A stretch of DNA of 64,000 nucleotides from a virus: the IMG/VR virus record IMGVR_UViG_3300027733_000032; one strand, written 5' to 3'. The notes beneath the pieces were generated by a model. That model had not been told where the DNA came from and did no database searches. It saw nothing but the letters and a program-made list of their open reading frames with translations. This document shows, in pieces, positions 21,242-61,200 of the stretch (the first letter of the stretch is position 1; the number at the start of each line of letters is the position of its first letter). The position numbers and the translations under genes are program-made.

Positions 21242-21802
21242 CTATAGGGATGATACGTCGATATTATCAAATTCCCACTTGTTTTGAAGCGACGCCCAGA
21301 GTGCTTCATCTATCGAAGTTGGCTCCATATCGTTTTCTGTCAACAGTTGACGATGTGCAGAAATTGCACGTTTCAGGAATTCGACTTGTTCCCAGCCAGT
21401 TGAGTGCATGATTGAGCCGGTTTCAATCATTTTCGTTATTTCATCAAGTTTTTTATTAACATGAAACTTGAAACGTTCAATTTTTGTTCGCTTGTTCTTA
21501 TATGAATGCTCTGCCTGCTGGAGTAAATTTCTCTTACTCCCGTAGCGAGACTCAATCTCTGAAAAACGCCGAAAATCAGCAGTCTCGTCTTCGTGCAAAT
21601 CTTCCAGTTGTTCTTCGAGATTATTAATTAACACAAGCAGGCACTTCTGCCACTTCTGCCAATTTTCTTTTTCCATAAGGATGCTTTTTTGCGATGACGA
21701 TAATTTGTTTTTCACATCCTCCGCAACCATATAGGCAAACATGTCGTCACTAATCATTCTGTTCATTTCTTCCATCCTGGACATATCGTCTTGTAAGCAC
21801 AC
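21242..21802 (-). CDS. hypothetical helical protein
   Basis: About 180-aa ORF in the recombination cluster. Confidence 0.65.
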   Translation of the reverse strand: MCLQDDMSRMEEMNRMISDDMFAYMVAEDVKNKLSSSQKSILMEKENWQKWQKCLLVLINNLEEQLEDLHEDETADFRRFSEIESRYGSKRNLLQQAEHSYKNKRTKIERFKFHVNKKLDEITKMIETGSIMHSTGWEQVEFLKRAISAHRQLLTENDMEPTSIDEALWASLQNKWEFDNIDVSSL

Positions 21803-27652: not shown

Positions 27653-27682
27653 CTATCATTGTCAATAGACGCTAGGAGAGAT

Positions 27683-41387: not shown

Positions 41388-41416
41388 CAAAGCAGTAAGT
41401 GGGATTGGAGCCCGGA

Positions 41417-44400
41417 ATGGCGGGTAAAGGTATCCCTCATCGTTATTCCATTAAGCGTTCCAATACGTTGCATGAGCGTAACATCGATGAGGTTGCTCTA
41501 TATTTTAAAGAACTACAGACGTATGCTGCTGCTCAGCCATACCTCAACCCATTTCTTTCCATCAAAGCACTAAGCCCTGACGCTAAGGCCAGCAACGCCA
41601 CTGCTAAGCCTGAATCAAAACGTACCTCAGCAGACGAGGATGAGCAAAAACTAAAAATAGAGTTCAACCCTAAGGCGACACGTAAACCAGGTCAGGTATT
41701 AAAACTTCACGTTACCTATGACGAAATGAAGTCAAAAGAAGGTGCCAAATTTGGCTGGATTGACCCAGCAAAAATGCCTTCCAAAGAAGAAATAAAAGCA
41801 AGCAAAGAAGAATTCAAAAAGACTATTGCAAGTAGGCCTACTGCAGTTTTTCGCGAGTATGAGCGTGGTCTGGACGGCAACCCAACACCTCGCCTTCTAA
41901 GTGAAGTTCGCTACAAGGGGCTTGGACAAACGATTGGGCAAATGCAGCCCGAACAGCGTGTAGGTAATGCTGCAGCGGCGGCTCTTGGTGTCGTATTTGA
42001 TGCTGCCGGAAAAATGCGCTGCCCTCCAGGCACACCAAATGCAAACCAATTTACTGACGAAAACATGTCTAACTGTTTTGTATTTTCCCCATTGACCGTA
42101 GCGCGAGAAATTCTACGCGTTGGTCGACGTCTCGCCGAAAGACTAGATGGCAGCGGTGGAGCGACCAGCAGGCAAGACCTTCGTTTTGATACTGCCTATG
42201 ACGCCGAAGCATTCCGAAAAGCAGAACGAGTAAAGGGCGTCTACACTAAAGCCGAAAGAATGCGGGAGAAGTGGGGTGCAAGAACAAGCGCAATAGAAAA
42301 TATGTTTACAAAACATGGCATTGATATGGACGACTCCATTGGTGCTGCAAACGGAGACCATATTCATGCTCTTGCTAATGAATATAGTTTTTCTAAAATT
42401 GCAAAAATATATTCCGATGCGGACCCTGACTTTACATTCTTCGACCCATCAAATGGCGAGGAAATAACCGACGACATCTGGAATTCTTTTGACTCTGCAA
42501 AGAAGGCAGAAGTCGCGTCGTACAATGCAAAACGCTACGACGAATCATTACGTCAAGAAATTACAGAGATGGTTCCTGAATCGATTAGGGAAGCAGCAAG
42601 AAATGGTGATGCTGATGCTCAGAAAGCCCTAGACGAGTATGTCGAGCGCACCCGAGAGATTCACCACAAAACGCAACGAGGAATGCTTGGTTCATTGCTT
42701 CAATACAAAGACGAAATGGGCGATAGGCAAGATGCTTTTGGTGGTTTCAGTAGTCATGGAATTTCTGGAAAAGATTTAGTCACTACGGAGGCAATGGCAT
42801 TGCCTAACATGGATGAAAATGGGATGCCTGCGGTGACCATTACCATCAATCCAATGTCCGTCGCTGTTCGAGGTAGGATGCCTTACGAAAAAAATGGTTC
42901 GCTATTTCTTGAAATAGAATCAGATGTGTCTCTCAGTGAAGCAGAGAAACAAACAGAGATATTAAGAGTTATGCGCGAAATTACTGATGCGCAAGAATTT
43001 GTAAACCTTGTTGGTTATGCTAACGAACAAAGTGCCGCTCGTGGAGTTGCTGACCTTGGCGTTTCCTCAGAGGAGATGAAGGGTGCTCACGTCATGTGGC
43101 ACGAACTTGGTCACGTTCAACAATATAACGTTGCTAGAAATAAAATATATGATTTTTATGACAAAAATGGTTTCTTCCCCGTAGTCATTGACGGAAAACT
43201 TGAAAAATTAGAAACACCTCCAGCAGCATGGAGCAATGGGACGTGGGCAAGTGCCATGGACTCAATGATGGGTGCCACTGCCGATAGAGGGGGGCCCTTC
43301 GCCAAAACGGGCGCAATGGGATTCCCTCCCTTTGGGACAGACGAGTTTGAAGATTCATTTCTTCATTTTGTATCTGGCAATTACTATCAAGACAAAGTTC
43401 AGGGAGCACTAGGAGTACTTGGTCTCCCTGAAGAAGGTGCGCATCGTCAACTTGCCCTCATGGAGGGAACGACAGAACTCTTTGCGCTTGAAAAATTGGG
43501 AGTTATCGAAGGTCCGGAAGTAAGGCAATTCACTTCATGGATGGACCCCGTAGACCCAGCACCAGTACCCTCACTACCTCCTGGGGCCCCACCTGAGGTT
43601 CCTGACGTCCCAGGACCAGATGTCCCCGAGATACCGACTGCGCCGCCAACAACGCCATCCCCGCCCCCTGGAACAACAATAATTGATAACAGCACGACTA
43701 TCAATATCGTTATCAATGGACCAATAAATATCCATGTTGGTGGAACGGCTCCGGATTGGGACGAAGGAGCCATTGAGCCCCCAATTCCACCAAGAAAAAC
43801 CGTCGACCTTAAGTGGGAAGACATAACGCCAATGATTCTTGCGGACAAAGACTCTCAGTGGACTGCCTCTCCATCAAGTGGCGCTGATATTGGGCAGAAC
43901 AAAGACATGCAAAAACTGTGGTTGGACAGCGTATTTGGCATGGGTCCAGAAGAGGGGGGATTTGTACCAGAACAAGGTGAACTTCCTCGCATAGATAAAG
44001 ACGCCTATTGGAAGTTGTCTCCACAGCAAATGGATACTAGATACGAGTTTTTACGTGGTGAAGCAGATGCTTTAATTCTTAAATCGGAAACAGAATCATT
44101 AAATAAAGATGAGCAAGCCAAGTTATGGCTCGCAACAAAGGGCATGCAACAAATACTTGACATGAATGGCAAGAAAGCAGCACTCGCCGACGCCAAACGT
44201 GAAGAATACCTAAGAGATGGCTTCGACCCGACTCCAGGGAAGTACCTAAGACAAGTCGACTCACCACTGAAACCTCAGCAAAAAGGTTTCCGAAAATTAG
44301 CAACAAAACGTGCCGAAGAACGTGGTTACGATGTCGTTGAAATAGACGATGATGAACTTTCGCACTGGGCGCGTGAAATTTCAGACCATGCTGGAACAGC

Positions 44401-47400
44401 GAGTGATTCTGGTGCGGATGCCTTCAGCGGAGCCGACCGCCCATATAAGCGTGGCGAAGTAAGAAATAATCCAAGTTTCAATACCAAGAAGAATCTTGAA
44501 CGTAATCCAAACTACGAACCAAGCAATGAGCCTCCCACTCCAGATACGGATTCTGCAGGATATGTTGGAAGTAAATTGGACGAAATCAAATCACGCTCGA
44601 CTCCAGAACAGCGTGCGATTCTTGACAGTAGTGAAACTGTAGAAAAGCGCGAATCGGTCGAAGCCCTTATGGATTCTTCAGACCCAAGCAAATTGTCTGG
44701 GATGCTGAGTAGGAGTGCGGAAAAACGACAAGCAGCAAAAACTGGGGGGGAAATAAAGCGCTCAACTCCTAGTGAGTCTGGCGACATTATTGATGATGAT
44801 TTCGAGAGCGGCGTTGTGCCATTCCTGGATTTAATAGAAACATCAAAATTTGACGACGACGTCAAACTGGTTACCTCCATGCAAATTCCAAAAAATGGAA
44901 TTTCGGATGGGGACACAATCGACCACACTAAAATTATGCGTGGCAAAGTTGTCGATTTTGATACTAGTGATGGTTTTGATTTCAGCCAGCCCGAAGCCAA
45001 CAGGCGAGTGGTCATCGAAATGCCCAAGGGCAGTCGTGGCGTCCCATCAAAGAATGCACACAACGGCGACACTGATGACTACCTCTTGCCGCCAGGAAGT
45101 CTTTCTGTTGTTCGCGTCGACCCTGATGGGACAATTTTTGCAACACCATTAGAGCAACATGGCAAAAAAGAAATTCTCGATGACATGGAGAAAAATCTCA
45201 ATGGGATTGAACTAGGTGCTGATTCTTTGGAAGAATTGGAACGTCGTACGCTCTTGAGTTCAATAAGCAAAGAACGTTCAAAAGTTGTTCCAGAAAAGCG
45301 TACAACTCGTGGATTGAGTAGTTCAGGTCCCAGGGCCGCGCGTCAGTCTGCTAGAAATCAAGCGATTGTTGATGGCTTCGATAAAAATGGAAGCAGTATC
45401 TACGGTACGGATACCCGCATCGGCATGTCGCCCGAAACGCTTGCACGTATGGAAGGCGAGAGTAATGACAAATTCAGAAAAGCACTTGGCCTAGACAGAA
45501 GCGTAGAGATTCCAAAGCGTGACCAACGCGTTGAATCGTCCGTAGCAAAACTTGGTGGTCTCCTATCTGGGAAAGCAGAACCCTCAAATCAAGAAGAATT
45601 TGAATTTGTTAATTCGCTTTCACCGGAACTCAAAGATTTATTCACAAGCCTCGATGCCTCTGAAATTAAGTCAATAGTTGACGATGAACTTTTCGACTAC
45701 CACCAACAGTTTGACGACAGGGTTCGAATTTCCCTGCACCCGGAAGAGTTTAAGGAATTCTTAAAGACTGGAAAACTCAAGAACATTACGGAAACAAAGC
45801 CGAATAGTGCATCGGCGTCGATGTTAAAGGAGTTTGAGGGCAAATTAGGAATGTCTGAAAATTTGCCAGATGGTGCTCGCAGCCACTCTGGTTTCATGGT
45901 TCACAAAACACATACGGACGAAATTGCGGATTACTTAAATGAACTGCCTGGAAATGGCATTTCTCGCAATCCGCACTTCTTCTCTGAAACAGATGATGTA
46001 AATCCATCCGGAAAATCACGTGCTGGCGGAAAAGTTATTGATTTGGTTCTCGCTCCAGAAGTTGCTCAGCGTGCCGTATACGGTCGCGGAGACGTCACTG
46101 GTGGAGAAGTACTTCCAACTCCCGTACTTTCTACCAACAGAGCAGAAGTCGGTAGTGCTTTTGTGAATCTATCGGATGTTTCTGAATCAAGCGAACTTGA
46201 TGGAATGAAACAAATTGCCGAAGTCCTAGAGTCAAGCATTACCGGAAATAAAACAGGCCTTGGTGGCGGACACGGGGTCCCAACTTCTGTCAAGAGCAGA
46301 AACCCAGGATTTGCGCATGAGGCACTTGTTGCTGGTGGCGTGACTATTGCAGACGCAGAACAAATCCGCATCCCCGTAGAAGCACTAGACATGGAAGATG
46401 TCACTGTTTCGTTTGATGGTGTCGAGTTAGATAATGTGCGACAGCAATTAAGTCAGGCTGGATTGACTAATTCAGAAATTGATGACGTCATTGACAAAAT
46501 TGGTGCTGGTATTGCGCCGTATGCGCTACCCGAAATTGAACGCATGCGACAGGGGATGGCCTCTGAAAAAATGTCAGAGGAACTCTCATTGGTTCCGAAT
46601 CATTCAATGACGCTCGTTCCTACTAATCCCGATGGCGTAGACGTTCTTAATCCAGACCCATTACCCGGCGAGCCGACTACAAATAAAGAAATGCGCGATG
46701 CTTGGAGAAAGCGTTATGCCGTCGAGTCTCAACTGAAAAGTATTAAGGATTTGGCTAAACATGAAAAAGAAACCAAAGGCAAAATTGAACCACGCATGTC
46801 GGCCAAATCCCCGTCAGGAGAATCGAGGGTTTCACAGAGACGACAAGGTATTCGTTATTCAGAAGACGGATATAAATCAATATACGAAAATGGTATTGAC
46901 GACTTCGTAAGCGAAGCGGTAGATACTGTTGAATACAACCCCAAAACACGTGAACTTCGCGTCTTATTTAAGGGACAGTCAGACCCCTATCACTTCCTTG
47001 ACGTAGACCCTGATGATTTAGAGGATTTTGGCGACGAATTTGAGCCAATCGGCAACAAGATTGACAGAATTAAGCGCACCAACAATCGTACTGTTAGAGG
47101 CCCGGACGGTTCCGTAATTCGCTGGGACGGTAAAGAATGGTCCTATGAAGACGCTGGCATGAGTAGCAAGAAGCCTAGTGTTCCATTCGATGGCGATATT
47201 TCCGATAAGACCCCAGATGACATTGCGTTTGACAGTGACATTGATGAAATCATTAGCCCAAGTAGCACTTCCAGAATCGGAATGTTTATCCCTCAGGAGA
47301 GAGCGACAGACTCGGACATTTTTGATACCGATGAAATAAAAAAACGCATTGAGGGAATGAGTGCTCGCCTTGGGGAAATGAACCCTCGCGATATGGACAG

Positions 47401-50400
47401 ACGGAAACCTCGCGTCGATGAAAATGGCCGTCCCCAACAACTCCTTGGTGCTGGTATGGCATCTCGTCGCGATAGTAAACTTGCAGAATCTGACAAGCCC
47501 AAGAAATTTGGATTTGGTAAAAAATCAAAAATCAAACAGGGCGTCGAATCCGACGATGAGAGGCGCAAGCGCATTCTTGAAATGTCAAAGGGAGACCCTC
47601 GCACTTCTCCTGGCGTAAGAAAAGCCAATTATCAAACATATGACGGCAAGGATGTTTACGCAGTAGACAACATGGATGATGCAATTGCACTCTTAGTTGC
47701 CGGACATCATGTTGACCTGTCTGACTCCCATGACGAGGGTGACCTTTGGGGAGAATTTAAGTCCTTTAAGAAATGGCTCAAAGGCGTAGACAAGGCCGCT
47801 GCCAAGAAAATGAGTTTCAACCTTTGTTCCGTGCATAAAGAAGGAGCAAACATTTTCTGTGGAAAGCACAAGGGCATTATTCGTGACGATATGCCGCAAG
47901 TTGGTGGAACCGTGACTGACCCCAACGCCCCTGCAATAAGGCTCTGGGTTGGTGGCCATGTTCATGGCAACTCCTTTGACTCCTACAACGGCGCAAACAC
48001 CCCAGACTGGGTGAAGCAGGGGCTATTGTCCGAACAGACAGACCCAGAACTTTTCAAGCGAGCCAAGGCTGAGTCTGACAGATTAGAAAACGTATATCGC
48101 GCCCTCGGTAGTCGCTACTACCCAGGAAACACGGTTGACCCATTGACAGAGGCTGAGAAACAAGAATTCTTCTCATTGACCGACATCCGCAAGGTTGAGC
48201 CGGACATGATTGACAATTTTGTTGATGTTCTTAGGGCAAACGGCGTTAACGTCAGCGAACCAGAAGACCGCGACCCCATGACTCTGCGCGCAACACAAAA
48301 TGAACTTGTTGCTGGAACAGTTCTTGGACTATCAGACGCAATTACTAGTTACGAAGACATGTTGCAAATTGGTCAACGACCAGATGGCACGCCATTCACT
48401 CAACAAGATTATGACAGAGTTCGGATGCTTGGGCCAATACTTGTCACAAAAGACGGTTATATTCTAGATGGCCATCATCGCGTATTCGGAAAAGTAGCGG
48501 CAAACTTTGACCGAGAAGATAACGACCAACTTGCGCAAAAAGTTCGTGTTGTTGATATGCCACTAGAAGCACTTTTGTCGTTTACTCGTGCCTATGGAGA
48601 GCACATTGGAATTGCCGCAGCAAGTGGGCAAAGCACGGAACGACGTACTCTTCCAGATGACATCAAGACCCCACTTGACATCATTCCAGCAGCAGCGGGG
48701 GATTTGGAAAAACTAAACGCCGAATTCACAGACAACCTAGATGACAAAGTTAAAGCCCTCGAAGAACGTGATGGACATCCATTCTTTAAGCCTGAATCAC
48801 CAGGATTTGAACAGGGTGAATCGTATAGGCAGTCAATGCAATTTGTTGAGCGTCGCGTATTGACTGACAAGCAACCAGGAGAACGTTCATCTCCGTCGCG
48901 CGTTCCTTCATCTGGAGGAATGGCGTCGCGTCGCTCGGGCATTACGACGCCAGGAGGACGAGACAGCGTTGGTGCAAATAGGGTAGATACATCAAGCGCA
49001 GTGCAGCCCAATGCCAGAAAGATGCATGAGGATGCTGTCAGTAAAACAATGGATGCCCTGGACGGAGTGAACCTCGATGGTTTGAGCGAAAGTGAACTCC
49101 AATCACGATTTGGTGTTGCGCGAAGTGGAGAAAAGTCTTTAATTGATAGCAGGGACATCTACCATACGACAGATGGTGCTACGGCAATCGCAATGCTCGC
49201 ACGTGGGTACAACGTCGAAGTAGATAATGATGGTCTTGCAGCAGAAGTATCCGACAGTCAAGCAGCATTCAGGAAAATGATTGAAGCAAATGTTAAAAAA
49301 CTTGAAAATCTTTCTGCTGACGAAAGAAACGCACTACTCGATGAACTTACCGTAGATTTATGCAAACTATATGTTGCTGGCAAAAATGTCATGTGTGGAG
49401 AAAATATCGGCATTGATAGGGAACAGATGCCACAATTGTCGGGCCGCACACTGGGTGACGATACGCTAGCGATGCGTGCCGCAAAAGATGGACACATCCC
49501 TATGAAATGGGCGGCTATCGATGAAAAGAACCTTCCGCCAGAGGAATTGGCAAGATTTAAAGAATTAGAAGCAAAACATGTAGCACCAGGCAGGGATGAA
49601 ACATTTGGTCCTGGTGAAAAAGAAGAGTTCTACAGTCTTGTCGACTGGAATAATAGCGAGGCTGATGTTGTAAAAGAATTTGAAAAGAGTCTTGAATCAT
49701 CGTTAAAGCCTGTAGACAAGGATGGCAACCCTACTTCGGCAGTTATTCTAAAAACAGCCAGGCCAGAATCGTATAAAGCATCACAACGTCAATTGGTTGG
49801 TCATAAGACTGACGAAATGCGTGATGGTATTCGAGAAAATTTAACAAAATTTGATTCACACGCCGAATCACTCGGACTCAAAAAAGGTACACCAGAATAT
49901 AAAGAAATGCGTGCGAAGTGGCTTGCTGGGGAATATAAATTTGCTGACAGCAATGGGGTAAAAGTCAAAGCATGGTGGACTGACCCATTACTTGCAACAC
50001 GCGATGGATACGTACTGGACGGCCATCATAGGTGGGCGGCAATTAAGTTAATTAATGACGAACTTCCAGAAGATGAGAAACTTAGCCTTCGATGGAAGGA
50101 AGTACAAACAAACGTTGTCGAAGCCCTCACTTTAGGAAAAGCATTCCAGGATAAGTGGGGAATTAAAGAGGCGAAACTTAAAGGCGAACGTCAATTTGTT
50201 AAAAATGATGAAGTCCCAGGAATTGAGTTGGGTGAAATAGTCAAAGAGATGGATGAATATCACTCCAAATTGACAGACACGTTGGATGAATTACATAGCA
50301 ATAATCAATTCATTCGTAAACAATCTCTTGGTGCACGAAAGAATCCAAAAGTTGCCGCAGCACAGGTGGAGGCAGGCAAACGTGGCGAAGAGTGGGCCGC

Positions 50401-51706
50401 TCGACAGAGTGGGGTGAGTGGCGGAAAAGTACGCGTACCTCGTGAAAAACTTGAAGAAATACGTGGCGGAAAACTTGAAGAAGTGAGTGGTGAACCTCAA
50501 GGAATGCGTTCTCTTTCGCGTCCTTATCGCGACACGAGTGACGAAGAACTAAAAACCCAGTACGACAAGTATTTGCGCTACTTGGGTGGCCCTGGAGATA
50601 AGGGAGACGGCGACCTTACCTATATGCGACGGGCTAAAGAGTTTGATAAAATTAAAAAAGAAGTTGCTCGACGTAGGGAAGATGCTGGAGTAGATGGCGG
50701 TGGTCGCGGTTCTCTTTTACGTCCTTATCGCAATACGAGTGATGAAGAATTAAAAGCAATATACGAAAAATATTTACGTTACTTGGGAGGCCCTGGAGAC
50801 AAGGGTGACAGTGATTTTACCTACATGCGACGTTCAAAAGAGTTCGATAAAATTAAAAAAGAAGTTGCTCGGCGTGAGGAATATGCTAAAAAACCAAGCA
50901 GGGGAATGCGGTCCTCTGTTGGCAAGAATGTGCGCGTCCGTGCTGGCGAGGGCGGCGTCCCCGAGAAAGTATCCTCAGGCCAGCCCGATACTCCCGAAGT
51001 AAAGACGCCACCAAAAATTGAGAGAACTCACAAGGGTGTAGATATACCTGAATTTATCGACGAAATGCCAGCCGAAGGTCAATATAGCGACGAGGTTGTT
51101 GAAAAAGCAGTTGAACTACATGACAAAGTCAAAAAAGTTGAACCAGAACTTACTGACAATTTGATTGACATGGCCGCCGAAGGTGGCGGAGAGATGGAAG
51201 GTCTTGAATTCAGGTTTAAGGCAACTAAAGGAAACGCAAAGAAGATAACTAATATTTCGCGAGATAGCGGCATATCGGTAGAAGAGGCACAACTGCAGGT
51301 TCCCGACGCGGTCAGATACACAATGACATTTCCTGAAGAAGAATATGTTGGCGGAGCAGAAAACGTAATTAGTCGTCTTGAGGGAATAGGGCATGAAGTA
51401 CAAGTTAAAAACTACTGGGACGAAGGCGATGGATATCAAGGAATTAACATCGTAGTAAAACACCCTGATGGTTTCTTGTACGAGTTGCAACTACACACGC
51501 CTGAATCGTTTAAAGTTAAGCAAGCAGCACACGATGCTTATGACGAGTATCAAAAAGAAAAAGATGATGTCATTCGTTTGGAGTTATTCCGAAGAATGGC
51601 TGCCGCTGCAGGAGAACTTCCAATGCCCAAGGGTGACGTCAAGGGAATAGGCAACCTAGCCAGGAAGAACTTTCAGACTTGGGCACAACAACAGGGAGGC
51701 AAGTAA
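41417..51706 (+). CDS. giant modular protein B (zincin HExxH, degenerate VIP2-like ART, DUF3626-like, KTSC, two ParB-like, C-terminal RelA/SpoT-like)
   Basis: GGAG SD before ATG 41417; HELGH 43100; LDGHHR twice; D-x-x-RY...YQGIN...ELQLHT. Confidence 0.8.
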   Translation: MAGKGIPHRYSIKRSNTLHERNIDEVALYFKELQTYAAAQPYLNPFLSIKALSPDAKASNATAKPESKRTSADEDEQKLKIEFNPKATRKPGQVLKLHVTYDEMKSKEGAKFGWIDPAKMPSKEEIKASKEEFKKTIASRPTAVFREYERGLDGNPTPRLLSEVRYKGLGQTIGQMQPEQRVGNAAAAALGVVFDAAGKMRCPPGTPNANQFTDENMSNCFVFSPLTVAREILRVGRRLAERLDGSGGATSRQDLRFDTAYDAEAFRKAERVKGVYTKAERMREKWGARTSAIENMFTKHGIDMDDSIGAANGDHIHALANEYSFSKIAKIYSDADPDFTFFDPSNGEEITDDIWNSFDSAKKAEVASYNAKRYDESLRQEITEMVPESIREAARNGDADAQKALDEYVERTREIHHKTQRGMLGSLLQYKDEMGDRQDAFGGFSSHGISGKDLVTTEAMALPNMDENGMPAVTITINPMSVAVRGRMPYEKNGSLFLEIESDVSLSEAEKQTEILRVMREITDAQEFVNLVGYANEQSAARGVADLGVSSEEMKGAHVMWHELGHVQQYNVARNKIYDFYDKNGFFPVVIDGKLEKLETPPAAWSNGTWASAMDSMMGATADRGGPFAKTGAMGFPPFGTDEFEDSFLHFVSGNYYQDKVQGALGVLGLPEEGAHRQLALMEGTTELFALEKLGVIEGPEVRQFTSWMDPVDPAPVPSLPPGAPPEVPDVPGPDVPEIPTAPPTTPSPPPGTTIIDNSTTINIVINGPINIHVGGTAPDWDEGAIEPPIPPRKTVDLKWEDITPMILADKDSQWTASPSSGADIGQNKDMQKLWLDSVFGMGPEEGGFVPEQGELPRIDKDAYWKLSPQQMDTRYEFLRGEADALILKSETESLNKDEQAKLWLATKGMQQILDMNGKKAALADAKREEYLRDGFDPTPGKYLRQVDSPLKPQQKGFRKLATKRAEERGYDVVEIDDDELSHWAREISDHAGTASDSGADAFSGADRPYKRGEVRNNPSFNTKKNLERNPNYEPSNEPPTPDTDSAGYVGSKLDEIKSRSTPEQRAILDSSETVEKRESVEALMDSSDPSKLSGMLSRSAEKRQAAKTGGEIKRSTPSESGDIIDDDFESGVVPFLDLIETSKFDDDVKLVTSMQIPKNGISDGDTIDHTKIMRGKVVDFDTSDGFDFSQPEANRRVVIEMPKGSRGVPSKNAHNGDTDDYLLPPGSLSVVRVDPDGTIFATPLEQHGKKEILDDMEKNLNGIELGADSLEELERRTLLSSISKERSKVVPEKRTTRGLSSSGPRAARQSARNQAIVDGFDKNGSSIYGTDTRIGMSPETLARMEGESNDKFRKALGLDRSVEIPKRDQRVESSVAKLGGLLSGKAEPSNQEEFEFVNSLSPELKDLFTSLDASEIKSIVDDELFDYHQQFDDRVRISLHPEEFKEFLKTGKLKNITETKPNSASASMLKEFEGKLGMSENLPDGARSHSGFMVHKTHTDEIADYLNELPGNGISRNPHFFSETDDVNPSGKSRAGGKVIDLVLAPEVAQRAVYGRGDVTGGEVLPTPVLSTNRAEVGSAFVNLSDVSESSELDGMKQIAEVLESSITGNKTGLGGGHGVPTSVKSRNPGFAHEALVAGGVTIADAEQIRIPVEALDMEDVTVSFDGVELDNVRQQLSQAGLTNSEIDDVIDKIGAGIAPYALPEIERMRQGMASEKMSEELSLVPNHSMTLVPTNPDGVDVLNPDPLPGEPTTNKEMRDAWRKRYAVESQLKSIKDLAKHEKETKGKIEPRMSAKSPSGESRVSQRRQGIRYSEDGYKSIYENGIDDFVSEAVDTVEYNPKTRELRVLFKGQSDPYHFLDVDPDDLEDFGDEFEPIGNKIDRIKRTNNRTVRGPDGSVIRWDGKEWSYEDAGMSSKKPSVPFDGDISDKTPDDIAFDSDIDEIISPSSTSRIGMFIPQERATDSDIFDTDEIKKRIEGMSARLGEMNPRDMDRRKPRVDENGRPQQLLGAGMASRRDSKLAESDKPKKFGFGKKSKIKQGVESDDERRKRILEMSKGDPRTSPGVRKANYQTYDGKDVYAVDNMDDAIALLVAGHHVDLSDSHDEGDLWGEFKSFKKWLKGVDKAAAKKMSFNLCSVHKEGANIFCGKHKGIIRDDMPQVGGTVTDPNAPAIRLWVGGHVHGNSFDSYNGANTPDWVKQGLLSEQTDPELFKRAKAESDRLENVYRALGSRYYPGNTVDPLTEAEKQEFFSLTDIRKVEPDMIDNFVDVLRANGVNVSEPEDRDPMTLRATQNELVAGTVLGLSDAITSYEDMLQIGQRPDGTPFTQQDYDRVRMLGPILVTKDGYILDGHHRVFGKVAANFDREDNDQLAQKVRVVDMPLEALLSFTRAYGEHIGIAAASGQSTERRTLPDDIKTPLDIIPAAAGDLEKLNAEFTDNLDDKVKALEERDGHPFFKPESPGFEQGESYRQSMQFVERRVLTDKQPGERSSPSRVPSSGGMASRRSGITTPGGRDSVGANRVDTSSAVQPNARKMHEDAVSKTMDALDGVNLDGLSESELQSRFGVARSGEKSLIDSRDIYHTTDGATAIAMLARGYNVEVDNDGLAAEVSDSQAAFRKMIEANVKKLENLSADERNALLDELTVDLCKLYVAGKNVMCGENIGIDREQMPQLSGRTLGDDTLAMRAAKDGHIPMKWAAIDEKNLPPEELARFKELEAKHVAPGRDETFGPGEKEEFYSLVDWNNSEADVVKEFEKSLESSLKPVDKDGNPTSAVILKTARPESYKASQRQLVGHKTDEMRDGIRENLTKFDSHAESLGLKKGTPEYKEMRAKWLAGEYKFADSNGVKVKAWWTDPLLATRDGYVLDGHHRWAAIKLINDELPEDEKLSLRWKEVQTNVVEALTLGKAFQDKWGIKEAKLKGERQFVKNDEVPGIELGEIVKEMDEYHSKLTDTLDELHSNNQFIRKQSLGARKNPKVAAAQVEAGKRGEEWAARQSGVSGGKVRVPREKLEEIRGGKLEEVSGEPQGMRSLSRPYRDTSDEELKTQYDKYLRYLGGPGDKGDGDLTYMRRAKEFDKIKKEVARRREDAGVDGGGRGSLLRPYRNTSDEELKAIYEKYLRYLGGPGDKGDSDFTYMRRSKEFDKIKKEVARREEYAKKPSRGMRSSVGKNVRVRAGEGGVPEKVSSGQPDTPEVKTPPKIERTHKGVDIPEFIDEMPAEGQYSDEVVEKAVELHDKVKKVEPELTDNLIDMAAEGGGEMEGLEFRFKATKGNAKKITNISRDSGISVEEAQLQVPDAVRYTMTFPEEEYVGGAENVISRLEGIGHEVQVKNYWDEGDGYQGINIVVKHPDGFLYELQLHTPESFKVKQAAHDAYDEYQKEKDDVIRLELFRRMAAAAGELPMPKGDVKGIGNLARKNFQTWAQQQGGK
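50501..50880 (+). repeat. 55-aa module copies 2 and 3 in tandem
   Basis: Differences from copy 1 are mostly at third codon positions. Confidence 0.92.
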
Positions 51707-51990
51707 TGAAAATGATTTCATCCGATACCCCTGAATCAACTAGGTACTTCTTTCATGTGCTCAACAATGGGAAGGTTATTGGCCTATTTCGCCTTTATCT
51801 CAACCTGGACTACCCGAAGAAAGGCTCCAAGGGGATTGAGGAAGTTGAATGGAGAAAAGATGAGTGGCTCGCCACCACCGACCTTACTGGTTTTATGATT
51901 AACGGCTCCCATGAAATAATGGAAGTCGACGAGGAAATAGCACGTTCAAAGTTTCCAAAAGCATTTGATGAAAATGAAGGCACAAAGTGA
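51706..51990 (+). CDS. small protein coupled to the RelA/SpoT domain, candidate immunity protein (94 aa)
   Basis: TAATG stop/start overlap, GGAGG SD. Confidence 0.55.
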   Translation: MKMISSDTPESTRYFFHVLNNGKVIGLFRLYLNLDYPKKGSKGIEEVEWRKDEWLATTDLTGFMINGSHEIMEVDEEIARSKFPKAFDENEGTK

Positions 51991-54900
51991 AATTGCGTGC
52001 AGTTTTAGTAGGAACTTTTTACGACAGCAAGTTGTATTACTTACTCGACCCCGTTGGTGAGAAAAATTCAACTGGTGCTCTCGTTGATAAAAAGGGAAAT
52101 GTTGAGTACGTTAAATTCTTTCATTTCATTAAATCTAACCCCAATGTCAAAGAATTAAAATTCAGCAAATTTCATCGTTTCCTCTGGAATGCCCCCAGTC
52201 CTGAAGATAAGCCCAAGTGGATGCGTACGTTCATTAATGGCACCCAGCCAGTCGGCGAAGAAATGTTGCAGGGTGCAAAGATAATCACCGAACTCTCTCC
52301 TGTTGTTGAGAAAAAACAAGACATAGGAGAAAGGGCTCTTCAGTTTAAGTCAATGAATGCATCACAAAACGCATCACGAATACAGGGTTCTGTACTTGCT
52401 AGAAGCGTTAAGTCCATTAGAGAAAAATATGGATTTAAGGGTATTGGAATGTCAATAGGAAACAAGCCAGCCATAGATGGTGATGGTGATGGATTTGTAG
52501 ATGACGGGCTTCCAACAATGAGGCCATTCATCCCTGGCTTCGACTTTGTCTTAGATGCCGCCGGGAACATTCGGGAGACCAAACCTACGAATCAGATTAC
52601 AAAACCCGTAACTCGTGGCGGGATGAGAAGTGGTGTCGTGACAAGACCACAGACACTCGAAGATAGGCTTGCTCCAATTTCAGAACAGGAAATGCGAGAT
52701 AGTTTTAGAAAAATTCGCTCATATGTTGAGATGAAATTCAACGATGGTGTCCCTTTTTCAAAAAAAGGCGAGGCATTAGCAATACTTAAAAAAACTATTC
52801 CGTCTTTTGCCTCTGGCGAATCATACATTGAGTTTTTAAATAATTTGCCGAATGATGATGATGTTATCCCTGATTGGGCAAGGCGATACCTGGATTCCTT
52901 CCTACTCTCAATAGATGCCCAACCAATGTCTGCTCAATTTAATTATCATATGAGAAGAGCAGCGGATAGTAAGAGTTACGAAGGTGCAGTCGGCACTAGG
53001 CCCGGAACCAATGATTATGTCATGGTCGACCCAGTAGGGGAAAAGTACGCTCCAACACGAACAAGGCAGCCCCTTATTGTTTTTTGGTACAAAGAAGCAG
53101 TTGCAGTAACGCCAGCAGTATCGGTTACTGCCGATAAAAGAATGGCTCCATTCTTAGTAAGCCATGCAATTTCTGCAAACGCAATGAATGAGCAACTCTT
53201 GAATGCCGGGATAACTAAGCGCCAACTAGAAGATTTGAACAATCTAGATAGGGTTGATGCAACACTTGTGAGTATTATTACTTCACTAAATGAAATAATT
53301 CAACAAAATCCAACTGCGAGAGTTAATGATGCTGAAAAAATATCACAAAACCTAGTTAATGCCATTGAGGCTTTTGTAGATGTAAAAATATCTAATTCAG
53401 TCATAGACCCTAAAACTAATTTTTTTCTTGAAACTCCAAAAATTCCAGCAGTAACTTTCAAAGACTCCAAAGATAGAGAAAAGCCTTTTATACAAAGCAA
53501 TATTTTGCGACAACTCGTAGACAAAATTGTAAAATCCAATAACAATCCTTTGCTTTCAGACTTGCTAACAAGTGCCCAGGATGCGAGTTTGTCGGCTCAG
53601 CGAACAATTTCTAGTGACAACACTCTTAGAAAAACTCAAAGAAAACTATCATCCATCATGGAAGATGCGCGAGTTTTAACGACCGGCATGATTGCAGTGC
53701 ATGAATCAAATCACATGCTACAAAATATTCAAGCATATATTGATGTGCAAAATGAAGCATCTATTCTGAGAAAAAAATTAATAGACGAACGCATTAATGC
53801 AGCAAACAAATTGCAGATTCCAATAACTCCCGAGATACTCGCAGCAATAGAAGATGAAATAAAAGTAGAAAATTTATATCAAGATTTATTTGTTGAAAAA
53901 GCAGTAAAACTTGCTAAGAGCGATATTGATTTAGCAAAGAGTCGACTCCTTCATGCTGATTTGGCGCGTGTCGACGCAATTTCCTTAAACTTAGAACGCG
54001 ATAAAAAGTCTCCTGAATATAAAAAAACTCCGGACGAAGCACCCGCTCATTATGGATGGAGAAATACGGATGCCGTAGTTGATGCCACGAATCAAATGAT
54101 ATTGAAGTGGGCTGAATTCAATAATCAGGGTGATTCTTCTTTGTCTGACAAGCAAAAATTAGCAAAACAAGCAATAGTAGATTTTCTAAAACAACCACTA
54201 TTTGATGGAACTAATGAGATAAAAATTGGAGAAGGGATTGCTCGTATACTAAATCAATTGGACGCTATCTACGTTGGCGACCTGTCTACTGCGTTTGCAA
54301 ACAATGGGCCTAGATTTGTATCGGGAGAAAATCTTAATATTGGAATGGTCGCAATACTCCTTAATTCAGCACTGATTGAAGATGCTCAGCGAAGAAATAT
54401 CTTTAGTGGATTGAAATTGCGCAATTATTCAGCACTTCTTAATGAAGTTGGATTTCCTGATTTCGCTATTATGGACATGAATGGCGATGGAGTGAAGATA
54501 CAGGGACTCGATATTAATGAGTCAAGGAAACTATCTGCTGCAATCATGAATATGAATAGACTTGCCCTGTCAATTCCTACCGACCCAACAAACGGCATGG
54601 TATCTCCGTCACTGAGCGTGAGAGCAACAACTGCGTTGAGGGCATTTCCTGACGATGCAATGCTGCCATGGCCATTTTCAAATTTGACCAAAACTGAATT
54701 CCTAGCACTACCGGATGATACTTTCATTAAAGGATATGAAAAATTAATTGATACATCATTAAAGGCACTTTTGGGCGTCGCAAGACCACAAGATATAGGC
54801 ACGTTCCTTGAAGATTCATTAATATCAATGAATTGGTGGGACAAACTGTCAAAAGAAGAAATAGAACTACTTCTTGAAGTGGGAAAACGAATTGGTGAAC

Positions 54901-55199
54901 CGAGCATCAAGACGGGCAGGTCGGGTACGGGTTATGCCCCATATATGGGACACCTCACTCCTCAGCATTTACCAATGTTGGCCATCCATCCACAATTTTC
55001 TGAATTTACGGCAGAATTTGCCGTTGCCGAACTATTTGGTGTTGCTTTATCGCAAATAGACATATCTATATCACCAGATGGTAAAAAATCTGCCACTACG
55101 CGAGCATTGTCGGATAATGAGATAGCGGCAATAATGAAATTTATGAGATGGATGTATCCAAATCAAATGTTGGGCGAAAAAATGGAGACAATGCAGTGA
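51987..55199 (+). CDS. large modular protein C with DxDxDG tag and HExxH (HESNH) motif
   Basis: GTGA overlap; IDGDGDGFVDDG-x-x-x-x-RP; GGMRS; HESNH at 53700. Confidence 0.75.
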   Translation: MKLRAVLVGTFYDSKLYYLLDPVGEKNSTGALVDKKGNVEYVKFFHFIKSNPNVKELKFSKFHRFLWNAPSPEDKPKWMRTFINGTQPVGEEMLQGAKIITELSPVVEKKQDIGERALQFKSMNASQNASRIQGSVLARSVKSIREKYGFKGIGMSIGNKPAIDGDGDGFVDDGLPTMRPFIPGFDFVLDAAGNIRETKPTNQITKPVTRGGMRSGVVTRPQTLEDRLAPISEQEMRDSFRKIRSYVEMKFNDGVPFSKKGEALAILKKTIPSFASGESYIEFLNNLPNDDDVIPDWARRYLDSFLLSIDAQPMSAQFNYHMRRAADSKSYEGAVGTRPGTNDYVMVDPVGEKYAPTRTRQPLIVFWYKEAVAVTPAVSVTADKRMAPFLVSHAISANAMNEQLLNAGITKRQLEDLNNLDRVDATLVSIITSLNEIIQQNPTARVNDAEKISQNLVNAIEAFVDVKISNSVIDPKTNFFLETPKIPAVTFKDSKDREKPFIQSNILRQLVDKIVKSNNNPLLSDLLTSAQDASLSAQRTISSDNTLRKTQRKLSSIMEDARVLTTGMIAVHESNHMLQNIQAYIDVQNEASILRKKLIDERINAANKLQIPITPEILAAIEDEIKVENLYQDLFVEKAVKLAKSDIDLAKSRLLHADLARVDAISLNLERDKKSPEYKKTPDEAPAHYGWRNTDAVVDATNQMILKWAEFNNQGDSSLSDKQKLAKQAIVDFLKQPLFDGTNEIKIGEGIARILNQLDAIYVGDLSTAFANNGPRFVSGENLNIGMVAILLNSALIEDAQRRNIFSGLKLRNYSALLNEVGFPDFAIMDMNGDGVKIQGLDINESRKLSAAIMNMNRLALSIPTDPTNGMVSPSLSVRATTALRAFPDDAMLPWPFSNLTKTEFLALPDDTFIKGYEKLIDTSLKALLGVARPQDIGTFLEDSLISMNWWDKLSKEEIELLLEVGKRIGEPSIKTGRSGTGYAPYMGHLTPQHLPMLAIHPQFSEFTAEFAVAELFGVALSQIDISISPDGKKSATTRALSDNEIAAIMKFMRWMYPNQMLGEKMETMQ

Positions 55200-56255: not shown

Positions 56256-58285
56256 TTATTTACGATTTGCAGAAACCGAGTAAATGTTGCCCAAATTCCG
56301 TGGTTACTGTTCGTCGTCATATCGTCGAAACGAACCGCCAGCCACAGGGCGGAAGCATTCTTTTTTCTCAAAAGGCCGTAAATCCAGAAATAGTCACATA
56401 CAAAGCACTTTCTCAGTCCCACGGAACTAGATTTAAGTACGAAGTTAAAAGAGTAGGGCTGGTTGGCTCTAGTGGGAAATTGGGACAAACACTACAGGCT
56501 GCTGGTTCCTATGTCCTTCCTGGAGATTCGTCTCCATTGCGTAGCCCGGTTAGGTCCGGTCTATTCACGGCAATAACTCCCGGAGTACCTAACTTCAGTA
56601 GGCCACGCGGCCCCAAGAGGGACAGAACAGCAAGATGCCCTGAAGGATATCAATACGGTGGTCGTTTTACTAATAACGAACTATCCACATGTGGAGCCCA
56701 ACTATTTGACATTCCAGGACCACTGGGGGTCGTTATTGGCGTAATTGCCCGAGCACTTCGTCGTGGCGAACGAGCCGTAGCCGATGCCATGCAAGGGACC
56801 CCATTGACCCCTGGGGATTATGGTGGCAGCCTCATAGATTCACGTCGACCACAAATACCGCGCGTCGCAGACGCTAATCCAGCCTCACGGATGGCCGAAA
56901 TTACCCGCCTTGCAAAAGAGATGGGCGCTCCCAAAATCAATGCTTCACGCATGGTGCGTCGTGATGGATTTGTTCTTGAACCAGTAGTAACACCAAGAGT
57001 CCTTCGCGCAATTCCAGACAACAGAGACATGGAGGGTGCCGCATATCTTATGCGAATCAACGACCTTCCAAGCCTGGGTCAAGATGAATTAGGACTTCTT
57101 TCCAATACTGGAGTAACTAATCTAACCTATGTTCTTCCAGGTGGCTCAACAATCACTCTCGAAAAGGTACGCTCATTAACCGTTGGCGAGCGCCGCAAAC
57201 TTGGTAGAACAGTCAATTCAGCAGCAGCGATTGATAATTCAGAAAATCCAACCGCCCGTCTCATGAAGGTAGCCCAAGAAACTGGCGATGGTATTAAGTA
57301 TTCCGAAAATTTTGTAAGCGTGAATAGACCCCATGAAATTGTTAGGGGTAGAAATGGGAAAAAGACGGAACGGTGGGTTCGTGAACTTCTTGACGGCATC
57401 CCAGTGGCAGAAACAGCGCCATCACGTGAGACTTCGTCTGTTGCCGCAATAGCCGACAAGATTAAAGACGTAGATGAGGCTGCAGCCTTTATTGAGCAGG
57501 GTGGAAGCCTGGCAAGAATTTCGCCGGATATTCTTCAGCAGGCCCTCACAAAAAACAATTTATTCCGCTTGCGAGATATGGGCAATGGAGTCACTCGGCT
57601 TGATGGCCCTAGAGGCAAAACTTATTCAATTTATCAATCTCGCAATGAGTTTGACCATATCAATAGCACTTATGCTTCCGATATTCAACAACATCTGGGC
57701 CTAGAGTCGCCAGATGTGTATCCGATTGGTTCGGGTAGTCGCCGTAATTATCTTATGGATTCGACACTAAATACCTACCCTGGAATAACTCCACGTCGAG
57801 ACATTCCAATGAATCAAGTTAGTCCAAAAAAAATGGCATCACTATTTGTCTCTGACTATTTGAGTGCCAATAGAAACAGAAATCCGCTGTCAATAGAAGT
57901 GATGCAATTAGCGGACGAAAATGTTCCAGTAGTCAATTCCTTTGACTCAGAATTAACAGACTTGGCTAAAATAAAGATTGCAGACCGTAATAAGGGCGCA
58001 ATTGAAGACATGCGCTCATTGTCTGCCAATGGCGTTTTCGGCAAATATTATGCTGAACTTAAAAAATCACAGCAAAATCAGTACATTACTGAAATTAGGG
58101 AATTAATTGCACGGGCTCGCCTATTTAATTTTGTAAACTTTAAAGAGAGACTTCAGCGTGATGGCGCGCTTTCCGATGCGGAACTTGCACATGTTGACAT
58201 TATTAATACAATCAGCAAGCAAAGGCTGAATATTCTCGAAAATCAACAGGAAAGACTTGTTGAAATACTCGGAGGTAACAAGTGA
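56252..58285 (+). CDS. 677-aa head-operon protein with RCPxG..FT tag and degenerate HipA-like kinase C-terminal domain
   Basis: ATGA overlap; YASDIQQHLGLESPDV ... SDYLSANRNRNPLSI parallels the kinase in protein A. Confidence 0.6.
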   Translation: MIIYDLQKPSKCCPNSVVTVRRHIVETNRQPQGGSILFSQKAVNPEIVTYKALSQSHGTRFKYEVKRVGLVGSSGKLGQTLQAAGSYVLPGDSSPLRSPVRSGLFTAITPGVPNFSRPRGPKRDRTARCPEGYQYGGRFTNNELSTCGAQLFDIPGPLGVVIGVIARALRRGERAVADAMQGTPLTPGDYGGSLIDSRRPQIPRVADANPASRMAEITRLAKEMGAPKINASRMVRRDGFVLEPVVTPRVLRAIPDNRDMEGAAYLMRINDLPSLGQDELGLLSNTGVTNLTYVLPGGSTITLEKVRSLTVGERRKLGRTVNSAAAIDNSENPTARLMKVAQETGDGIKYSENFVSVNRPHEIVRGRNGKKTERWVRELLDGIPVAETAPSRETSSVAAIADKIKDVDEAAAFIEQGGSLARISPDILQQALTKNNLFRLRDMGNGVTRLDGPRGKTYSIYQSRNEFDHINSTYASDIQQHLGLESPDVYPIGSGSRRNYLMDSTLNTYPGITPRRDIPMNQVSPKKMASLFVSDYLSANRNRNPLSIEVMQLADENVPVVNSFDSELTDLAKIKIADRNKGAIEDMRSLSANGVFGKYYAELKKSQQNQYITEIRELIARARLFNFVNFKERLQRDGALSDAELAHVDIINTISKQRLNILENQQERLVEILGGNK

Positions 58286-61200
58286 AAAATTACGCCATCC
58301 TTAGAGACGCGGTCGAGGAAAAAGTATTTGGCCTCGTCATTGAAAAAGATGGTGGTTTTCGTTTCTACGGAGCCGATGACAGAGCAAAAGAGTGGGCTAA
58401 TTGGGCTAACTCGACATCACTCAAGTCCCTACAAGAAGCACTTCCGGTTGGCGTCATTGCCACCGACAAGCGTCCATTAGTGAATGATACTGAATTATTT
58501 ATTGAATCACTTATTGAATCTGCATCAAATGCTGGCGAAATAAAGAAGCCGACTTTTTCATACAAGAGTTCATATGTTACTAGAGCAAACTCATCAACCC
58601 CGTCAGCCCGAGATTTTCAACTGCGTTCGTTCAATATCGACGCCAGACAGAATGCCATCAACTTCAAGGTTTACGCATTTAAGAATGACCAGAAGTCATC
58701 TTCGCTAATGGCGAAAATTCGTTCGGCTGGTCTTGGCTTCAATGAAAAAACCGGTGAATTCAGAAGCAATGACATAACAATTTCTCATTCCTCGCTACAG
58801 CAGAATATCGAAACTACATACACCAAGTCGCTACAGCGCAATATTGGTTTCAATGTCATGGCAGCCAAGAATGTTTATGCTAAATCACTCAGTCCTTTCT
58901 ATACGCACCCCAAAGTCATTGAACTCAAAAGACTCGGTGGTGCAATTGGTCCAAAGTTGGGTCGTGGACTACGTTCCGCTCCGATGGGAATGGTATTCGT
59001 CGACGTTACCGGAGCGATTGATGCTGACAAGGATGGCATTGTCTTTGAGGGTAAGCCTGGATTAGAACGACCAATTATTCCTAAATTCATTCTTCCAGAA
59101 GGTGTCGGTCGTCGTGTGGCTTCACTGATTGGTGGAGCAGCAGAACAGAATGAAAAGAATCGCCGCTCGGGCGCGAATGGTGGTGGAGTAATTGACGAGG
59201 CAAAACTTCGCAGTATTCTCGGAACTGACGCCTCATCCCTCAATAAATTAAATGCTCCTTCTCCGTTGACTGATAGCGATAACGCAAATGCCACTGGCAT
59301 GCGTTCTATTGCTGGGAACATTAGAAGTCGACGTGATGCGATTATCGCTAAACGTACTGGCTCGATAGACCTGTCTAGGGTTGGGCGTGGTGAAAAGACT
59401 CAGTTGAATACCGGCGATTCGCGCGCTGTTGAAAAAATGACATGGGATGATTCGGCAAAGGAATTAATTGTCACGTTTGCTGGTGGTCGCACATATACGT
59501 ACAACAACGTCGACGACAGTTGGGTTGATGAACTAGAGAAAAATCCTGATGCACTCGGTCGCATCATGAATGACATCAAGAAGGCTGGATACGATTTCAC
59601 TTCAGGTGGAACCCACGCTCCAGACAAAACGCTTGCCAGCAGAATGCAGGGTCGCCGTGAGGCGGCAGGAATGCGCTCGGCTAGAACCGGCAACAATAAC
59701 CCGCTCAAGCAATCCGAAGTAGATGAACTTTTCTTCGACAATGCTGCATGGTCAAATGATGCGCTTCAGTTCGGTATAGATACGGACTCTCGTGGGAATT
59801 ATGATATTGAGGGAAATAATCCATTGTCAGATGTTTTGTATCGAGAATTCCCCGGCAGATTCAATGTAGATGAAGGTGGCAGAGTCGGAGTACCACGCCA
59901 AGACCCTGAAGTTGTTTTTGATTCCTCAAACATGAGCGATGAAGAACTTGCTCTTTTCACTGACATTCTCGCAGAAAATGACCCTGCAGTCTTGAAAGAT
60001 TTCCCTACTAGTTCAGGTACTGGCATGTCCTCTCGCAAGGGACCAGACGCGACTACTAAAAAGACGAATTTGTCCGAAACGAAGTGGAAAGGCAAGCGTC
60101 TTTCAGATGATTTGCTAAGTAGGGAAGATTTAAGTGGAGAAGACCTTTCTGGTGCCAATCTCGAAGGTGTGAATTTAAGTAATAAAAACTTCACTGGAGC
60201 GAATTTAAGCGAAGCCAATTTATATGAAGCCAATTTGCAAGGCGCCCGCCTCGTAGATGCTGACCTTTATGCAGCCGATTTAATTAAAGCAAATCTCGAA
60301 GATGCAAATCTCGAAGGCGCACGTCTAGAGTATGCCGATTTGCGTGAAGCAAATTTATTAGATGCCAATTTGAATGGAGTAAATTTAAACGATGCTCAAC
60401 TTGGTTTTGCAAATCTAGACAAGGTTGACCTTGGGGGCGCCAAACTCAGTGGCGCTGACCTAACTGGGGCATCATTATGGAAAGCAAATCTTGAAAATGT
60501 AGACCTGAGTAATGCTTATTTAGGCAATATTAAATATATGACAAATGCCAAACTACAGGGGGCAAATCTCAGAGATGCAGACCTCAGAGGTACGGACTTG
60601 TCCATGGCAGACATGACAGATGCAGACCTCAGGAATGTCGATTTTACTGGCGCAAACCTAGATGGTGCAATTTTTTCTGGAGCAAATCTAAATGGCACAA
60701 AACTAGATAAGGGCTGGGAACAAAGCGTTGGCATGCGCTCATCAAGGAAGCCAAGCAATAATGACTTTGACACGAATAGATTTCTTCCCTCATTGGCTGA
60801 CAGAGAAAACTACGTTGCTAGTGACGAATACGAAGCAGACCTAGAGGATTGGCTCACTCGTTTTCCAAGAAAGACAGAAGCGGATTTCCGACGCAGCAAG
60901 ACGTTCATGGAAAACGTAAGCATGTTTAATCCAGGCCCGGATGTCTCTGAATTCTCAAGAGAAGCAGACATTTACGACGGATGGTCTCCTGAGGAAATTG
61001 ATTCAGGCCTACCCGACACTCTCTGGCGAGGTATGAGTTCACGTACTAGTGGCCTCACTCCAGAAGGCAAACGCGATATTAATGACGCAACAAAGAAGTT
61101 GTCAGATTTCTCGCGCAATTCAGCGTTTGGTGACGTGTATCCAGGTGCAGAAAAATTTGACAGCAATAAGAGACTGCATCAATCCATTAGTGACATGTTC

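Follow-up and report, generated by a model that had tools for sequence, protein, structure and literature searches.

The genes considered here lie in a 64,000-nt stretch of viral DNA (hereafter the window) from the IMG/VR record IMGVR_UViG_3300027733_000032. The window is taken from the minus strand of this 90,311-bp record, an incomplete genome; by estimate it is only about 60% complete, so that absences from the 90-kb record are weak evidence. On the plus strand of the window, a giant open reading frame (ORF) of 3,435 amino acids (aa), ORF B, ends in a domain with the motifs and the predicted fold of a RelA/SpoT-type alarmone synthetase, and its stop codon overlaps the start of a 94-aa ORF. 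A first reading of the sequence (below, the original prediction) had pointed to this pair as a synthetase with a candidate immunity gene. The features that carry the argument are the following.

41399-51706 (+): giant ORF B, 3,435 aa, from the ORF list, with the synthetase as its last module
50903-50914 (+): last G-M-R-S of ORF B (residues 3169-3172), predicted cleavage point freeing a module of about 265 aa
51014-51703 (+): folded RelA/SpoT-type small alarmone synthetase domain, last 230 residues of ORF B, from the sequence and an AlphaFold model
51212-51244 (+): motif syn1, R-F-K-A-T-K-G-N-A-K-K, with R3272 and K3274 through K3282
51305-51322 (+): motif syn2, D-A-V-R-Y-T, with D3303 (catalytic Asp) and R3306
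51431-51448 (+): motif syn3, G-Y-Q-G-I-N (GxN)
51482-51499 (+): motif syn4, E-L-Q-L-H-T, with E3362, Q3364, H3366 and T3367
51694-51699 (+): Shine-Dalgarno sequence GGGAGG inside the end of ORF B, 6 nt upstream of the ATG at 51706
51706-51990 (+): 94-aa IapK-like ORF, predicted cognate binding immunity, from linkage, selection and profile homology

The synthetase domain

The catalytic motifs of RelA/SpoT enzymes (syn1 R-x-K...K, syn2 D-x-x-R and syn4 E-x-Q-x-[RH]-T) are present behind the last G-M-R-S of ORF B, where the original prediction had read them. Six residues (D, R, E, Q, H, T) are invariant across 30 homologues and occur in the window synthetase, and the wider set of family-invariant residues (D, R, K, N, Y, E, Q, H, T) is kept in full. 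In the alignment with the crystallised SaEAS of Streptomyces albidoflavus, Asp 3303 falls on the alanine introduced by the inactivating D121A mutation. In syn1, the domain departs from the family consensus at two serines, having Ala at +3 and Gly at +6 in their place. The unusual R-F-K-A reading of the R-x-K-S motif, already remarked upon in the original prediction, is confirmed, and it recurs: among the nearest relatives, position +3 from the Arg holds Ala or Thr, and the Apk2 homologue of the S. pneumoniae prophage phiARI0462 has Thr there; the Gly at +6 is kept in the related loci L007 and L002 and occurs in the protein P0015 too. Judged by these alignments, the deviation is real, yet it is no defect.

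In sequence searches, the kinship of the domain stood out well above chance. In a phmmer search against the PDB sequences, SaEAS (PDB 8vx3) was matched at an E-value of 5e-14, and the domain also matched PHROG 2859 (6.5e-31), PHROG 7625, labelled “head morphogenesis”, and the C-terminal region of the XopAD effector model of NCBIfam (8e-29). A tblastn search against isolated phages returned 128 records, of phages of S. pneumoniae, Ralstonia, Pasteurella, Mannheimia, Haemophilus and Aggregatibacter (Aaphi23 included), in all of which the synthetase forms the C-terminal end of a MuF-type head protein; MuF proteins of S. pneumoniae prophages were matched at E 7e-16. Identity to the domains of Apk2 homologues is 27-34%. 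The Apk2 proteins of S. pneumoniae, Mannheimia and Pasteurella phages are characterised (p)ppApp synthetases, and RYT in syn2, GxN in syn3 and xH in syn4 have been described as signatures of adenosine pyrophosphokinases (PMC12226406). By alignment, the window synthetase has all three.

The fold comparison, which had been set beforehand as a refuting test, returned the expected family. An AlphaFold model built with 29 metagenomic homologues as input reached a predicted local distance difference test (pLDDT) value of 89, the first 26 residues after G-M-R-S being disordered. The top Foldseek match of this model was SaEAS (E 2.7e-12, template modelling (TM) score 0.82-0.85), followed by Tas1/Apk1, RelP, RelQ and RelSeq and, more weakly, by FaRel2 and CapRel. 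There were 35 matches at E <= 1e-3, and those listed at this level or close to it (to about 4e-3) are without exception alarmone synthetases or chains of the RelA/SpoT family. With the TM score normalised by the query, SaEAS reached 0.62-0.65 (E 1e-11 to 1e-12), compared with 0.35-0.40 (E about 2-3e-3) for FaRel2 and CapRel. Sequence and model firmly place the C-terminus of ORF B among the alarmone synthetases, in the clade of the phage Apk2 toxins and the exported alarmone synthetases (EAS).

The small gene behind the synthetase

The arrangement of the 94-aa ORF described in the original prediction was borne out. In the stop codon TAA of ORF B (51704-51706), the last A is also the first base of the small ORF's ATG (TAATG), and the small ORF has its own Shine-Dalgarno sequence at the spacing listed above. 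Compared with its counterpart in L007, the ORF shows 0.14 for nonsynonymous differences (pN) and 0.85 for synonymous ones (pS), the synonymous sites being saturated, and is therefore under purifying selection. With phmmer, just four relatives turned up among 1.8 billion representatives. Two of these, from L007 and L002, likewise follow a giant ORF that has the same synthetase at its end; identity to the window is 78% for the synthetase and 80% for the small protein in L007, and 49% and 36% in L002.

The family of the 94-aa protein is visible only by profile search, and its linkage to the synthetase was examined on this basis. Out of 311 synthetase loci found in IMG/VR, 80 were fetched, and 82 loci were searched in all, with the family profile run against all of their 9,123 six-frame ORFs of at least 40 aa at a cut-off of E <= 1e-3. 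Matches occurred in 50 of the 82 loci, each being a plus-strand ORF whose start lies at the end of the gene with the synthetase, and nothing else matched; family members of 79-82 aa also stand behind giant carriers. Where the profile found no match, the synthetase was mostly internal to a giant ORF or the contig stopped right after it. In L014-L017, L021-L026 and L038-L041 the synthetase is internal in giant ORFs (2,575-3,219 aa where complete), with 458-1,116 residues after it; no IapK-like gene comes next in these loci, and a different conserved protein of 154-166 aa is found instead.

IapK is the binding immunity protein of Apk2; it neutralises the toxicity of Apk2 by binding and blocks the acceptor-nucleotide site (PMC12226406). 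Its position is occupied by the genes directly after the Apk2-type gene in phiARI0462, Pmp4, Aaphi23, Javan119 and Javan452 (PMC12226406). We aligned these genes (alignment A4) and compared them by hhalign with a 31-member alignment of the small-protein family (alignment A3). The two profiles matched with 86.8% probability (E 4e-6, score 32.8, 57 columns). As controls, 200 column shuffles of A4 gave a mean score of 9.2 and a maximum of 17, and a reversed alignment gave 13.4.

Other searches with the small protein gave little. The 94-aa ORF has no Pfam or NCBIfam family, its BLASTP comparison with the IapK of phiARI0462 was not significant, and tblastn against the isolated-phage collection found no match; the A3 profile produced chance-level matches only against the PDB sequences, and a search of genome contigs for loci related to the protein P0040 returned nothing. 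The AlphaFold model of the protein (pLDDT 78) had no significant Foldseek match in the PDB. In an exhaustive search with VIA-align, Tis1 (6ox6_B), the immunity protein of Tas1, ranked 4th of 48,161 chains and was covered nearly end to end, at a Z-score of 3.6, which is within chance range; this likeness of predicted fold offers weak corroboration only.

Taken at the level of sequence, the 94-aa gene is firmly real, linked to the synthetase and related to IapK. That it encodes the cognate immunity, as the original prediction had proposed for it, is supported by purifying selection, by its exclusive positional linkage and by the profile homology to IapK, and agrees with the weak likeness to Tis1.

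The carrier protein and the head module

The pair stands in a head gene module whose further members are listed here.

within the window, divergently transcribed: large terminase gene
25528-27558 (+): portal gene (Pfam PF04860), directly upstream of the prohead protease
27659-29143 (+): prohead serine protease, Peptidase_S78 (Pfam PF04586, E 4.5e-12)
29236-39528 (+): giant ORF A, 3,430 aa, from the ORF list
51987-55199 (+): 1,070-aa ORF, a further head-module protein with one G-M-R-S site, from the ORF list

The plus-strand order after the protease is ORF A (3,430 aa), a 598-aa ORF, ORF B (3,435 aa) and the 94-aa ORF, followed by ORFs of 1,070, 144, 219, 677 and 1,753 aa. The GTG start of the 1,070-aa ORF (51987) overlaps the stop of the 94-aa ORF (GTGA). 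This larger neighbour had no family match in Pfam or PHROG, and a search for related IMG/VR loci returned nothing. The head module as a whole has no DNA-level relative in the isolated-phage collection. Neither a tyrosine integrase nor a serine recombinase was found in the 90-kb record, and the fragment shows no sign of a temperate lifestyle.

Most of ORF B has no family match. PHROG 2859 is matched in three stretches, a weak ParB-like match lies at residues 2860-2911, and a KTSC-like region is also present. With several unrelated domains in one chain encoded in the head module, ORF B fits the class of polyvalent proteins. It also holds seven copies of the tetrapeptide G-M-x-S, where shuffles would give 0.5. 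ORF A has 17 copies, the 1,070-aa ORF two and the 1,753-aa ORF seven, with 0.1-0.9 expected across these four proteins, in which most of the copies read G-M-[SR]-S. A G-M-[RS]-S just upstream of the synthetase module is shared by the window, L007 and L002 and is absent from the other giant carriers in IMG/VR. On this distribution, G-M-x-S is likely to be the cleavage code of the prohead protease, and the S78 protease of the module is presumably the enzyme that processes the giant proteins. Both the enrichment and the conserved border site suggest that the synthetase module would be released from its polyprotein.

Further domains were seen in the neighbouring giant proteins. ORF A contains a NUDIX domain (residues 221-340), a helix-turn-helix or sigma-like region (about 420-497) and pentapeptide repeats (about 760-820), and the 1,753-aa ORF (58282-63543) has long stretches of pentapeptide repeats and a KTSC-like region. 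On the minus strand, a protein resembling 3'-phosphoadenosine 5'-phosphosulfate (PAPS) reductase is split by an intein with a LAGLIDADG endonuclease domain (8657-10759). The minus-strand genes at 12567-14498, 21763-23407 and 17474-18277 form a replication and metabolism region, with a class II (B12-dependent) ribonucleotide reductase, a Cas4-like PD-(D/E)XK nuclease adjoining a Rad52-type annealing protein, and a ParB-N protein.

Relatives of the small protein

The profile of the small-protein family finds at least 114 clusters of stand-alone proteins (63-113 aa), all of them unnamed and without a Pfam domain. All 13 longer members of the family (P0153-P0165) have the IapK-like domain N-terminal to an XkdF-type prohead protease (PF14550); examples are L049:6684-7430, L066:6726-7484, L046:6527-7261, L039:1049-1855, L043:6654-7562 and L056:6664-7407. 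Taken alone, the protease part finds its matches in Arthrobacter and Microbacterium phages, whose proteases are without the N-terminal IapK-like domain. Since cultured actinophages thus have XkdF proteases lacking it, the fusion is no generic feature of the protease.

Other arrangements were found besides these fusions. In L030 (6615-11348), the IapK-like domain heads a 1,578-aa ORF with DUF3626 and ADP-ribosyltransferase domains, downstream of the synthetase gene, while in L097 the IapK-like gene and a prohead protease gene are adjacent. L094 encodes a 2,917-aa giant tipped by the synthetase. Toxin-like domains of other kinds were noted in some loci. The carriers in L050, L051, L057 and L062 combine the synthetase with a second toxin-like domain, and P0020 holds both the synthetase and an ADP-ribosyltransferase. 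The contig of L097 is cut, and the domain upstream of its IapK-like gene (1-537) resembles, by eye, an ADP-ribosyltransferase with R, S-T-S and E-x-E motifs. Behind these two-toxin carriers, too, there is an IapK-like gene.

A third group of IapK-like genes lies on cellular-looking contigs of similar G+C content, with no synthetase within 4 kb. Those of L004-6 (L004:6001-6228) adjoin a nickel superoxide dismutase and an ABC transporter; another protein occurs in two contexts, L095:4001-4231 and L096:4001-4231, one of them beside GmrSD; and those of L099 (3058-3282) and L100 lie beside UvrD-like helicases. These copies may be orphan immunity genes.

Comparison with known systems

The closest parallel is the Apk2-IapK-Aph1 system of MuF toxins in prophages of S. 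pneumoniae, M. haemolytica, P. multocida and B. caccae (PMC12226406, PMC10083569). Its toxin domain is homologous to the window synthetase and has the same RYT, GxN and xH signatures, and in both cases the toxin forms the C-terminus of a head-module protein and is directly followed by a gene of the IapK superfamily. An IapK-type gene directly follows the toxin gene in phiARI0462, Pmp4, Aaphi23 and Javan phages. Unlike Apk2, however, the window synthetase is carried by a 3,435-aa multi-module protein with G-M-x-S linkers and no MuF N-terminal domain, and the homology of its partner to IapK is detectable only when profile is compared with profile.

Among solved structures, SaEAS (PDB 8vx3, PMC12691689) comes closest, and its active site is laid out alike, including the Asp whose mutation inactivates SaEAS. 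It is a Sec-exported stand-alone enzyme without an immunity gene, whereas the window synthetase is the tip of a phage protein with no signal peptide context and is followed by an immunity-type gene. Tas1 (Apk1), the second-best fold match of the synthetase, forms with Tis1 an effector/immunity pair of type VI secretion (T6SS) of P. aeruginosa (PDB 6ox6). Delivery there goes via PAAR and the T6SS, the sequence similarity to the window pair is very low, and the Tis1 match reached only the Z-score of 3.6 given above.

In terms of the carrier, the best comparison is with the polyvalent proteins (Iyer et al. 2017, PMC5512222), which are giant multi-domain proteins whose genes accompany those for packaging and which are expected to pass into the host along with the DNA. 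Their components include RelA/SpoT and ParB-like domains, of which the RelA/SpoT domains have been read as injected effectors (PMC5512222). Processing of polyvalent proteins has been attributed mainly to zincin-like metallopeptidase domains, whereas the candidate in the window is a separate S78 protease that would use G-M-x-S as its code; this picture is now extended by an IapK-like immunity gene in linkage. Toxic small alarmone synthetase (toxSAS) pairs, such as PhRel (gp29-gp30 of phage Phrann), CapRel and FaRel2, also combine a RelA/SpoT-fold toxin with an adjacent neutralising gene. They are weaker fold matches, however; they act on tRNA, have unrelated antitoxins and are cytoplasmic defence or exclusion modules rather than parts of virion proteins.

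A model and its alternatives

The reading that we favour, and hold to be moderately probable as a whole, is that of an active 3'-pyrophosphokinase (alarmone synthetase) that would be restrained in the producer cell by an IapK-like inhibitor, carried in the virion, cut free and injected. Late in infection, ORF B would be made together with the translationally coupled 94-aa protein, which would bind the synthetase and block its acceptor-nucleotide site, so that the producer cell would be spared a drain of ATP. ORF B would then become part of the procapsid, and the prohead protease would cleave it at G-M-x-S, the last cut (residues 3169-3172) freeing the enzyme of about 265 aa. In the next infection, the enzyme would leave the capsid with the DNA and move pyrophosphate from ATP to adenine and/or guanine nucleotides. 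The resulting (p)ppApp and/or (p)ppGpp would shut down the metabolism of the newly infected cell. Injection is suggested by the position in the head module and by analogy to MuF and polyvalent proteins. Binding, cleavage, packaging, ejection, the nucleotide made and the benefit to the phage are all steps that we infer.

Several points weigh against this model. Pfam RelA_SpoT (PF04607) does not match the synthetase at E <= 0.1, and only three of 30 homologues match it, weakly and under the Pfam cut-off; this would mark the domain as divergent, in a clade poorly covered by PF04607. The products of relatives differ, Apk2 making (p)ppApp, SaEAS both nucleotides, and VpEAS and AaEAS (p)ppGpp, and because SaEAS carries RYT, GxN and xH yet prefers guanine acceptors, the product of the window enzyme cannot be called from its sequence. 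The MuF domain (PF04233) was found neither in ORF B nor in the 90-kb record, and the record had no match to the Aph1 HD hydrolase of phiARI0462 or to PF13328 (HD_4); the packaging logic of Apk2 is therefore not simply transferable. Both cleavage at G-M-x-S and the presence of the module in virions are only inferred. A turnover like that of SaEAS, about 100,000 per minute, would starve the phage of ATP too, and the immunity gene lies in a late operon. Finally, the fusions of IapK-like domains to prohead proteases allow an adaptor role instead of, or beside, immunity.

A tentative extension of the model, which we think rather doubtful, would take the IapK-like domain as a widespread, unnamed immunity superfamily and as a safety catch that is removed by capsid maturation. 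Fused to the protease, as in many phages, it would hold the toxin inactive in the cytoplasm and be carried into the procapsid, where the toxin would be armed only when the protease cuts and destroys itself. The orphan copies in bacterial genomes, one of them next to a GmrSD restriction gene, would then be anti-phage defences that disarm an injected synthetase.

Among the explanations that compete with the model, an assembly function of the small protein survives best, although we regard it as unlikely. It would then be mainly an adaptor or chaperone tying the synthetase to the prohead protease or procapsid, with neutralisation a by-product or absent. The occurrence of the same domain as the N-terminus of XkdF-type prohead proteases in many relatives, including all 13 longer members, would fit this, as would the adjacent genes of L097, the 1,578-aa DUF3626 and ADP-ribosyltransferase ORF headed by the domain in L030, and the coupling of the small ORF's stop to the next head-module gene in the window. 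However, the protein is homologous to IapK, which neutralises Apk2 by binding, the orphans in cellular-looking contigs far from capsid genes fit immunity better, and cultured actinophage XkdF proteases do without the domain.

It is less likely still that the synthetase acts late in the producer cell rather than being delivered by the virion, serving the timing of host shut-off or the exclusion of rival phages while the small protein sets the timing. No MuF packaging domain was seen in the record, and packaging and ejection are predicted steps; with no integrase or recombinase in the 90-kb fragment, protection of a lysogenic producer is not an obvious use of the immunity gene. Yet the module stands in a giant protein between the prohead protease and other head genes, it is bordered by the same linker motif, and related domains sit on MuF head proteins, all of which fits delivery by the virion better.

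We also give little credence, slightly less than to action in the producer cell, to the idea that the domain pyrophosphorylates the 3' CCA end of tRNA, like PhRel, CapRel and FaRel2, and not free nucleotides. The original prediction had left the choice between an alarmone-making and a tRNA-pyrophosphorylating effector; the kinship to Apk2 and SaEAS upholds the first and disfavours the second. The substrate choice of toxic small alarmone synthetases is not reliably readable from sequence, conversion of Apk2 motifs left specificity unswitched (PMC12226406), and FaRel2 and CapRel are among the fold matches. Nevertheless, these two match far worse than SaEAS, the nearest sequence relatives of tested activity, Apk2 and SaEAS, use nucleotides, and the partner is related to IapK, a blocker of the acceptor-nucleotide site. 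A catalytically dead remnant with a structural role, for which the replaced syn1 serines (Ala at +3, Gly at +6) and the failure of Pfam RelA_SpoT to detect the domain could be cited, is highly improbable, as all invariant residues (D, R, K, N, Y, E, Q, H, T) are kept, the substitutions recur in relatives under selection, and a dead enzyme would have no need of a conserved immunity gene so tightly coupled to it.

Implications

Work on phage alarmone-synthetase toxins has dealt with MuF fusions in temperate phages. The locus described here is well supported as a form of the Apk2/IapK toxin-immunity theme whose carrier is polyvalent and apparently processed by a protease; a known toxin/immunity pair thereby stands on a different vehicle, the giant cargo protein of a large phage. 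The IapK immunity thereby gains a far larger family, with at least 114 clusters, recurrent prohead-protease fusions and orphans, and it is this superfamily, with its protease fusions and orphan copies, that provides the more novel leads. The findings bear on two questions, namely how a virion can safely carry a lethal enzyme and whether bacteria turn stolen immunity genes against injected phage effectors.

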